Source: a virus (lineage: Duplodnaviria > Caudoviricetes). From it: a DNA stretch of 64,000 bases. Under the pieces are notes generated by a model, which worked only from the letters and a program-made list of their open reading frames with translations, had not been told where the DNA came from and searched no databases. Position 1 is the stretch's first letter. Each line of letters begins with the position of its first letter. Of the stretch, positions 36,205 through 39,326 are shown one piece after another. The DNA is taken from the IMG/VR virus record IMGVR_UViG_3300035208_002115; one strand, given 5' to 3'. The translations under genes were made by a program, and so were the position numbers.

Positions 36205-36237
36205 AAAAAAAAAGTCCAAACTTTCGTCTGGACTTTC
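36205..36237 (-). terminator. Intrinsic terminator (candidate attenuator) upstream of first tRNA
   Basis: AGTCCAGAC-GAAA-GTTTGGACT followed by a U-tract. Confidence 0.85.
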
Positions 36238-36266
36238 CTGTCATTTATATGAGTTCTTTTCGTGTT

Positions 36267-36386
36267 CTACAAGCAAAGAAATTCAGATTTTAGACAATAT
36301 AGTCCAGTCCCATTATGGCTAATAAACCATTTATGGCGTTTCACTGAGGAAACTATTGAGCTAATATGACTAAAACTTTTCAACAT
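36267..36386 (-). CDS. Candidate attenuation leader peptide (39 aa)
   Basis: MLKSFSHISSIVSSVKRHKWFISHNGTGLYCLKSEFLCL; overlaps the antiterminator strand CTGGACT-ATA-TTGTC. Confidence 0.6.
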   Translation of the reverse strand: MLKSFSHISSIVSSVKRHKWFISHNGTGLYCLKSEFLCL

Positions 36387-36459
36387 ACTTAAAATTATTA
36401 ATTACTCATTTTTGTTTATATATTCGGAAAAAAATACGTCTTTTTTCCAAATCGTTCTG

Positions 36460-36467
36460 CAAATGTA
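36460..36467 (-). promoter_or_regulatory. Bacteroidota -7 element TACATTTG, likely tRNA-operon promoter
   Basis: TAnnTTTG with TTTG 23 nt upstream. Confidence 0.6.
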
Positions 36468-37547: not shown

Positions 37548-37763
37548 ATGAACGAATTAGCTTTGAAATTAAAACAAACAATTATCAGTCAACTCATAAA
37601 AAATGAGCAGATTGTGGATGCTATCTACTTACATAAAGGTAGAAAATCATATTCAAGACGAAATATAGCTACCGAAATAGAGAACGAAACGGAGTTCGGT
37701 ATTGAGTTTCTTGCTGGTATGGTCATGCTTGCCATTGATTTAACAGCAAGACAAAAAAAATAA
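37548..37763 (+). CDS. Hypothetical protein
   Basis: ORF track; TATTTTTG upstream. Confidence 0.65.
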   Translation: MNELALKLKQTIISQLIKNEQIVDAIYLHKGRKSYSRRNIATEIENETEFGIEFLAGMVMLAIDLTARQKK

Positions 37764-38017
37764 TATTTTAGTTTTAATAATTGTATCATTTGATGGGTGG
37801 GACTTTTTAATATTATATTAGCAACATAAACTTTAAACCCAAATACCATGACACACACACACATTCACAAATTTATAACCAAATAACACATCATGTGTTA
37901 ATAGCCAATGAGCATTTTATCAGACAATCTATAATAAATGATAGAATTTCTGAGTTAATCAAAGATATCAAACAATTATGAAAATAACTATTGTAAAGCT
38001 AAAAACAGCTATACCTT

Positions 38018-38721: not shown

Positions 38722-38928
38722 ATGGAATTACTTGATGTTTATTGGACAAACAATGTTAACATGTTGGTCATTAATTGTGATTGTGGTAAACAATTCGATT
38801 ACCCATCTAATTATTCTTTAATAGAATGTCCTGAGTGTGGATATAAAGAAATTTGGCATGAAGATGGTTTAAATATTGAAGAATTAAAAGGCTACAAATT
38901 GGTAAAAAATAAAATTATAAAATGGTAA
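38722..38928 (+). CDS. Zn-ribbon protein
   Basis: CDCG...CPECG. Confidence 0.7.
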   Translation: MELLDVYWTNNVNMLVINCDCGKQFDYPSNYSLIECPECGYKEIWHEDGLNIEELKGYKLVKNKIIKW

Positions 38929-39326
38929 AAGAACCAAAACAAGTCATTATAATTCGTAAAGACCTAAATCTACGAAAAGGTAAAATGTGCAGTTCAGCTT
39001 CACATGCGAGTTTAAAGGTGTTTTTAGATAAGTTAGTGTGGGCTGGTCAAGAATCTTATGGTGATGCAATTCTTCATATTGAGAAAGACAGTCCAATGTC
39101 TATATGGTTAAATGGTATTTATAAAAAAATAGTGGTGGGTGCTGACACATTAGCTGAAGTAGTCAACGCTTATGAAGAAGCCAAAAGACGAAACATACCA
39201 TGTTCATTAATAACTGATTTAGGATTAACCGAATTCGGTGGAGTGCCTACAATAACTTGTTGTGCAATTGGGCCAGATGATTCAGATAAGATAGATGAAA
39301 TAACAAAAGATTTTAAGCTTTTATAA
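38922..39326 (+). CDS. pth2: Peptidyl-tRNA hydrolase type 2
   Basis: KQVIIIRKDL..RKGK...SHAS, KKIVV, DLGLTEF..PTITCCAIGP, IDEIT..FKLL. Confidence 0.9.
   Translation: MVKEPKQVIIIRKDLNLRKGKMCSSASHASLKVFLDKLVWAGQESYGDAILHIEKDSPMSIWLNGIYKKIVVGADTLAEVVNAYEEAKRRNIPCSLITDLGLTEFGGVPTITCCAIGPDDSDKIDEITKDFKLL

Follow-up and report, generated by a model that had tools for sequence, protein, structure and literature searches.

A putative multivalent leader-peptide attenuator ahead of a tRNA gene block in a large phage genome

Organization of the tRNA locus

The window is a stretch of 64,000 nucleotides that forms the terminal part of one contig of 675,678 bases (27% GC), a virus record with an estimated completeness of 98%. 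Its minus strand carries a block of tRNA genes, here called block C, which is preceded in order by a TAnnTTTG box, a second conserved motif, a 39-codon ORF (leader C), a terminator, and a boxA-like element located ahead of tRNA-Ser(TGA) (Table 1). The initial annotation of this DNA had described the promoter box, ORF, terminator, boxA, and first tRNA on this strand, and each of them was recovered where it had been placed. A three-codon upstream ORF (36398-36409, minus strand) ends 11 nt ahead of the leader start and is not found in relatives, and a gene for a PTH2-family peptidyl-tRNA hydrolase is located 2.5 kb upstream of the leader (38922-39326, plus strand).

Table 1. Features of the leader region and of the tRNA genes that follow it, in positions of the window.
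Feature	Position	Strand	Remarks
TAnnTTTG, putative -7 promoter box of the Bacteroidota sigma-A type	36467-36460	minus	upstream of all three leaders and in relatives
Second conserved motif: G/A-rich box, ~17 nt, then ATATATAA	36449-36416	minus	overlaps a short hairpin
Leader ORF, 39 codons and stop	36386-36267	minus	frame kept in four relatives
Sensor run, codons 3-24, Lys/Ser/Phe/His/Ile/Val/Arg/Trp only	36380-36315	minus	longest such run
Protector (1:2) helix, codons 4-11 with antiterminator 5' strand	36376-36287	minus	predicted fold
Antiterminator 5' strand, codons 27-32	36307-36293	minus	pairs with 36242-36228
Whole antiterminator hairpin, three stacked helices, leader stop codon in apex	36307-36228	minus	predicted fold
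Intrinsic terminator, 9-bp stem, GAAA loop, 8 U	stem 36234-36213, U tract to 36205	minus	invariant in five sequences
boxA-like element	36194-36186	minus	further copies at 36088-36080, 35359-35351, 35254-35246, and 34896-34888
Proximal tRNA block: Ser-TGA, Trp, Ile-GAT, Val-TAC, His, tRNA-like gene, Phe (two), Lys-CTT, Lys-TTT (two)	36179-34109	minus	
Distal tRNAs Ile-TAT, Arg-ACG, Ser-GCT	31127-30198	minus	same trio in two relatives

TAnnTTTG is known as the sigma-A consensus of Bacteroidota (PMC7366714, PMC9723704); a TTTG at -33 of the leader C promoter is not kept in relatives. The second motif is found ahead of all three leaders of this genome (described below) as well as in relatives, and a similar motif directly precedes a tRNA-Met in the phage genome LR745206.1. 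Judged by its sequence it is a putative phage-sigma promoter, and the phage encodes three proteins with sigma-70 region 2. Neither an RNA polymerase beta subunit nor NusB was found in the phage genome, and thus the host machinery is the likely reader of the leader. The boxA-like element is by sequence a candidate rrn-type Nus antitermination site, and the 16-mer at 34896-34881 is an exact match to an element that separates the 16S and 23S rRNA genes of two Bacteroidota genomes. Because of the promoter box consensus and this 16-mer match, the host is probably a member of Bacteroidota.

The first tRNA gene, Ser-TGA (approximately 36179-36094, minus strand), was detected only at a relaxed ARAGORN threshold, and the proximal block also encloses an HNH gene and one small ORF. 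The HNH gene (35998-35606, minus strand) lies between the first two tRNA genes; another long ORF occupies this place in L001 and none does in L460, as expected from the behaviour of a mobile endonuclease. All tRNAs listed by the initial annotation match the leader, but its list had omitted two genes, namely the tRNA-like gene (34618-34532, minus strand) and a tRNA-Lys(TTT) with a long D-arm (approximately 34278-34191, minus strand). The former has an enlarged anticodon arm with GGA, GTA, or GTG as central triplet across relatives, and this one enlarged arm is borne by two different tRNA bodies. ARAGORN called it Ser-GGA, reading TCC, and this assignment was rejected since relatives have GTA or GTG there. 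The tRNA-Lys(TTT) possesses an additional D-loop hairpin and was missed by default ARAGORN and by Rfam; that it is a nuclease-resistant variant is speculation.

The distal trio starts approximately 3–4 kb beyond the last proximal tRNA and is located behind a terminator-like hairpin (31160-31132, minus strand), which stands immediately before Ile-TAT and Arg-ACG, is kept in two relatives, and lacks a matched leader upstream. Owing to this distance and this second hairpin, we only infer that the distal trio is co-transcribed with leader C. The hairpin could need Nus antitermination or could be a processing signal. A 256-aa ORF within the tRNA region (33144-32374, minus strand) has a weak SufBD-core match.

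Sensor codons of leader C and of two further leaders

Codons 3-24 of leader C, which read as the initial annotation had listed them, encode all eight amino acids of block C and no others. This run of 22 codons is the longest for the block C set among 2,173 ATG ORFs of 25–60 aa genome-wide, where the runner-up has 17, and in long ORFs (158,702 residues) runs of this set never exceed 13. At a background frequency of 0.42–0.49, simple arithmetic gives a 22-codon run a probability of approximately 1e-7 to 6e-9 per start. The distal tRNAs Ile-TAT, Arg-ACG, and Ser-GCT are matched by ATA, CGC, and AGY codons of the leader, and CGC accounts for just 1.4% of the phage Arg codons.

The phage genome possesses three tRNA blocks that jointly cover all 20 amino acids, with Arg divided by codon box. 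Block A comprises Leu, Asp, Asn, Met, Glu, Tyr, and Cys, while block B comprises Thr, Gly, Ala, Gln, Pro, and Arg-TCT/CCT. Both show the same promoter motifs and a leader (leader A, genome 131354-131440, plus strand; leader B, genome 608676-608542, minus strand), followed by a terminator just ahead of the first tRNA. The matched runs are 16 codons in leader A (next best 10), 21 in leader B (next best 6), and 22 in leader C (next best 17), and in all three the run includes each amino acid of the leader's own block. When codons 2-24 of the three leaders were scored, the values were 0.78–0.96 against the own block and 0.04–0.13 against the other blocks; leader C alone scored 0.96 and 0.04 against each of the others. 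The Arg codons follow the same division, being AGG and AGA in leader B and CGC in leader C. A promoter box together with a short ORF ending 15–45 nt upstream was found at only four of the 42 terminator-like hairpins genome-wide, and three of these four are leaders A–C. This genome is a clean example of the design, because its three leaders partition the whole code.

Several other elements of this genome were observed beside the blocks. A tRNA with anticodon TTA, ochre suppressor-like, is encoded at G000 37754-37827 (minus strand) without a leader and in none of the three blocks. Just upstream of leader A lies a gene for a 529-aa IscB-like protein with RRXRR and HNH domains (L471:710-2299, plus strand), and immediately after it there are about eight CRISPR-like repeats of 36 nt with distinct spacers (approximately L471:2400-2880); gene and repeats correspond to genome 128709-130880.

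Conservation and predicted folding of the leader

Conservation in relatives had been named as a test of the leader, and the ORF is indeed kept in four of them at 38–40 codons. The leader frame is retained in these relatives, in contrast to the 5' spacer and the first tRNA gene. Across five sequences the first 30 nucleotides of the leader show three synonymous changes, codon 3 is Lys or Asn, and nucleotides 31–77 are invariant; the relatives are close, with only three distinct 3' variants. A complete 640-kb relative carries all of leaders A, B, and C. Its leader A is diverged, and nevertheless codons 3-17 all specify block A amino acids.

It had also been proposed that codons 27-32 pair with the 5' arm of the terminator and hold the stop codon in the apex of the resulting hairpin. 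This pairing has the lowest predicted energy when the nascent RNA lacking the terminator 3' arm is folded (-21.2 kcal/mol, z -3.26, in the window), and the terminator itself folds at -16.9 kcal/mol (z -5.75). The antiterminators of L460 (-19.4 kcal/mol, z -4.34) and L003 (-25.9 kcal/mol, z -7.52) share its topology, although the middle and apical helices differ. A protector helix is predicted in the window (-19.8 kcal/mol), L003 (-25.8 kcal/mol), and L460 (-23.8 kcal/mol), and the two invariant hairpins that it encloses could, on this model, pause RNA polymerase. The predicted folds contain mutually exclusive antiterminator and protector helices, the former of which would be freed by a stall on the sensor codons, and the sequence provides further features of the attenuator class, namely a short ORF after a promoter, cognate sensor codons, and a terminator before the first gene.

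The effect of a translating ribosome was modelled by treating a 30-nt footprint as unpaired, with neither sterics nor timing. In leader C the modelled terminator arm is sequestered with a probability of approximately 1 when the A site is at codons 2-22, and of 0.3–0.7 at codons 23-34. The drop begins at codon 23 in leader C, at codon 17 in leader A, and at codon 27 in leader B, where it is weak (from 1.0 to approximately 0.75), so that in the model each sensor run ends where the ribosome begins covering the antiterminator. With the U tract excluded, the gap between terminator and antiterminator is 1.6–2.2 kcal/mol for a ribosome at codon 5 or 12 versus approximately 11 kcal/mol at codon 26 or 30. 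The full-length RNA at equilibrium always favours the terminator, and thus any read-through must be kinetic. A ribosome placed at the stop codon lets the antiterminator re-form, as the model includes neither sterics nor timing.

Leaders of other phages and prophage-like regions

If leader codons poll the tRNAs behind them, leader content should co-vary with tRNA content, and this was found for the three leaders of this genome, for leaders of different phages, and for two homologous leaders. The 635-kb genome LR745206.1 partitions the code differently, into four blocks, each of which has a matched leader and terminator. A tRNA-Met of this genome (L134:1341-1790) is located right behind the promoter-like motif and outside the next attenuator; if it is an initiator, it would be exempt from a switch that requires initiation.

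A wider sample was collected by two pattern scans of viral contigs, retaining those tRNA clusters whose first gene is preceded by a terminator, and leaders were picked by position and pairing only, blind to composition. In 23 viral clusters outside the family of this phage, the fraction of pre-antiterminator codons that belong to the cluster's own set is 0.66, compared with 0.45 +/- 0.025 after permutation, and it rises to 0.75 in the last 12 codons before the antiterminator. None of 100,000 permutations reached 0.66, a count that overstates the significance since the loci are partly dependent (three derive from one phage), while many clusters are cut by locus ends and the match is to that extent understated. 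Codons past the antiterminator show no significant enrichment in these clusters (0.48 vs. 0.43; 6,206 of 100,000 permutations). The distance from stop codon to terminator is 18–40 nt in 26 of 26 leaders, and in 17 of the 26 no more than 10 of 200 codon shuffles equal the antiterminator pairing. At the level of isoacceptor boxes, in loci partly cut by their ends, the match is 13/18 for Arg, 12/20 for Leu, and 7/16 for Ser; judging from these sequences, isoacceptor-level matching is fair for Arg and is not general.

The homologous pair is found in prophage-like regions of two Bacteroidota genomes (L424:6385-6545, plus strand; L455:6645-6810, minus strand), one of them on a contig of 5.1 Mb, with Mu-like portal genes and an integrase in the surroundings. 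The two leaders have start, end, and terminator in common and differ in sensor codons and tRNA sets: one presents Tyr/Ser/Trp codons before Trp, Tyr, Ser, and Ser tRNAs, and the other Leu/Gln/Pro/His codons before Pro, Gln, His, and Leu tRNAs. The stretch that they share is read in different frames, and sensors may have been re-specified through compensating frameshifts.

Other arrangements were also encountered. L048, L184, and L226 each have a near-complete single tRNA cluster with a single leader that samples nearly the whole code, and in the L048 leader 19 different amino acids are represented among codons 1-27, with the full 20 reached by codon 39. Two Bacteroidota MAGs combine a leader, a terminator, and a small tRNA array (L289:3090-3330 and L391:3354-3600, both minus strand) with RNA ligase and HD/AAA_33 genes as neighbours, to which L391 adds WYL and TROVE genes; L289 adjoins nuoA/nuoB-like genes, and the codon match of both is partial. 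Leader and terminator are absent at the tRNA clusters of crAss001, Cellulophaga phi4:1, and Flavobacterium immuto_2-6A, and thus the design is not shared by all phage tRNA clusters. No tRNA match was obtained for phiST or PTm1, and a BLAST of the tRNA blocks against cultured phages returned only tRNA and HNH matches, none of them with the attenuator system. An array of 17–18 tRNA genes in Gemmatimonadota (L316, L323, L327, L328, L332, L334, L366, and L385), conserved in many genomes directly behind a promoter-like site, is likewise without a leader.

Proposed mechanism and alternative explanations

The initial annotation had read the locus as an attenuator of the trp/his type with sensor codons that poll the controlled tRNAs, and the conservation of the leader and the co-variation of its codons uphold this core. 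We consider it quite probable (roughly 0.87), on the basis of sequence and folding models, that a multivalent ribosome-mediated transcription attenuator gates the phage tRNA block and tops up tRNA by negative feedback. Leader-peptide attenuation has also been reported as likely for amino-acid operons of Flavobacterium (PMC9723704). Host RNA polymerase would initiate at the promoter and a ribosome would load onto the leader. When Ser, Trp, Ile, Val, His, Phe, Lys, and Arg(CGN) tRNAs are plentiful, the ribosome would pass codons 3-24, cover codons 27-32, and next sit in the apex of the would-be antiterminator, while the protector helix captures the strand behind it; the terminator would then form, as the folding suggests, and the tRNA block would be off. 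If any cognate tRNA is short, the ribosome would stall in codons 3-24 and leave codons 27-32 unpaired, and these would capture the emerging 5' arm of the terminator so that polymerase reads through. The boxA elements would recruit host Nus factors that carry polymerase along the long non-coding transcript, perhaps even beyond the hairpin at 31160-31132. The feedback would be negative because the product is the missing tRNA, and the loop would run without new protein synthesis. The tRNA set is thus probably made only while ribosomes decode the matching codons slowly.

What the switch is for is a separate question. A ribosome is blind to the reason for a shortage of charged tRNA; additional tRNA bodies cure tRNA loss and not amino-acid starvation, and this reasoning favours tRNA shortage as the purpose. 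It would also suit the idea that the same attenuator was selected specifically as a detector of host anticodon nucleases and other defences that destroy tRNAs, with resistant replacement tRNAs as its output, which we regard as possible, though somewhat improbable. Phage tRNAs are known to defeat tRNA-cleaving defences, but the nucleases concerned, PARIS and PrrC, cleave the tRNA-Lys of enterobacterial hosts (PMC11464382, PMC10264068), whereas the host here looks like a member of Bacteroidota. Among the proteins encoded by the phage are an RNA ligase, RtcB, PTH2, and a member of the CCA/poly(A)-polymerase family, which fit past tRNA damage, though nonspecifically, and the two Bacteroidota loci with similar leaders and tRNAs adjoin RNA ligase, HD-kinase, WYL, and TROVE genes. 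Against a dedicated defence sensor, the leaders poll all 20 amino acids rather than the few tRNAs cut by known nucleases, and the same circuit would be favoured by the high demand of a genome with 27% GC or by host RNA decay that the phage drives. A general homeostat of tRNA supply fits just as well as a sensor of anticodon nucleases does.

The attenuator might instead sense translation in general, with any slowing of the ribosome, by antibiotics or uncoupling, opening the terminator and codon identity being secondary. In the model a stall anywhere in codons 3-22 would likewise free the antiterminator, the isoacceptor-level match is incomplete, and a cyanobacterial trn operon reacts to general translational stress (PMC8421152). 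Nevertheless this explanation is very unlikely, as it accounts neither for leaders restricted to the amino acids of their own block nor for sensor codons that change with tRNA content.

Even less credible is a constitutive terminator that is overcome by Nus factors at boxA, or by a phage antiterminator protein, beside an incidental ORF. There are five boxA copies and short ORFs are common, ending within 90 nt of 41% of random positions; however, the terminator precedes the first boxA, p for the codon match is approximately 1e-7 or less in each of the three leaders, and both ORF and antiterminator are conserved. The invariance of nucleotides 31–77, third codon positions included, would suit a leader RNA that reads tRNAs directly in a T-box-like, ribosome-free manner or a peptide that works in trans, both of which are highly improbable because the Rfam matches in the window are to tRNA only and leave no T-box, the matched codons stay in a single frame from ATG to a stop codon whose distance to the terminator is fixed, and the leader peptides are alike only in their composition rule.

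Relation to known regulatory systems

Short leader peptides control amino-acid operons by transcription attenuation, among them trpL, hisL, and leuL, and two, the closest to the phage leaders, are multivalent attenuators, thrL with Thr and Ile and ilvL of ilvGMEDA with Ile, Leu, and Val. pheL is a further leader-peptide transcription attenuator of an amino-acid operon (PMC3082878). The phage leaders resemble this class in having a short ORF with sensor codons, a protector, an antiterminator, and a terminator, and in the predicted read-through upon stalling. Unlike these known attenuators, they are phage-borne and control tRNA genes instead of enzymes, a leader covers 6–8 amino acids (leaders of other phages reach 20) and represents every one by one to seven codons, the code is partitioned among several leaders, and the stop codon lies in the antiterminator apex 18–40 nt before the terminator. 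None of the Rfam leader families (Trp, His, Leu, Thr, and Phe) matches in the window at gathering score, where only tRNA is found, and the phage leaders also differ from these families in that the genes downstream are tRNAs and not an amino-acid biosynthesis or synthetase operon.

The pheST attenuator of Escherichia coli (pheM) senses charged tRNA for one amino acid and its output is a synthetase. It is similar to the phage leaders in sensing charged tRNA by attenuation and in controlling a translation component, but the phage output is tRNA and several amino acids are sensed. T-box riboswitches recognize a single uncharged tRNA by direct binding and work without an ORF. They are likewise tRNA-responsive terminator/antiterminator switches, and their structure, with specifier loop and T-box bulge, has no Rfam match in the window.

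The trn operon of Anabaena, known as the L-array, is repressed by TrcR (PMC8421152, PMC10272220). It resembles the phage blocks as a spare tRNA array with an HNH gene that is on under translational stress, whereas its control is by a repressor at the promoter and is not codon-specific; the words attenuation and leader are absent from the report of this operon (PMC8421152). T5 tRNA-Lys offsets PARIS (PMC11464382), and a general hypothesis of replacement tRNAs has been proposed (PMC10264068). Like the phage genes described here, these tRNAs are phage-encoded replacements for lost host tRNAs, but no sensor or conditional expression is described for them in the text searched. No report of attenuation of tRNA genes was found in the literature searched, which covered only a minority of subscription papers; the proposed mechanism is a known one and its target apparently undescribed.

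Implications for phage tRNA genes

What tRNA genes do for phages has been debated for more than 50 years as an open question (PMC10264068). A switch tied to the decoding speed of a block's own codons would make phage tRNAs an on-demand supplement, and the competing ideas of defence nucleases, host RNA decay, and codon demand would become testable by which condition opens which leader. The design would also supply a reason for the sorting of phage tRNA genes into blocks. With it, attenuation would reach beyond enzyme operons and sensors of one to three amino acids to tRNA genes and sensors of 6–20 amino acids. The leaders, as compact natural sensors of tRNA depletion, might be used to screen Bacteroidota for tRNA-targeting defences. 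We tentatively suggest, as an idea with the odds somewhat against it, that Bacteroidota phages run a surveillance of the whole tRNA pool, in which blocks are polled by multivalent leaders and sensors are re-specified, mainly against tRNA-destroying immunity. If this is true, leader codons would predict which tRNAs are attacked by host defences.
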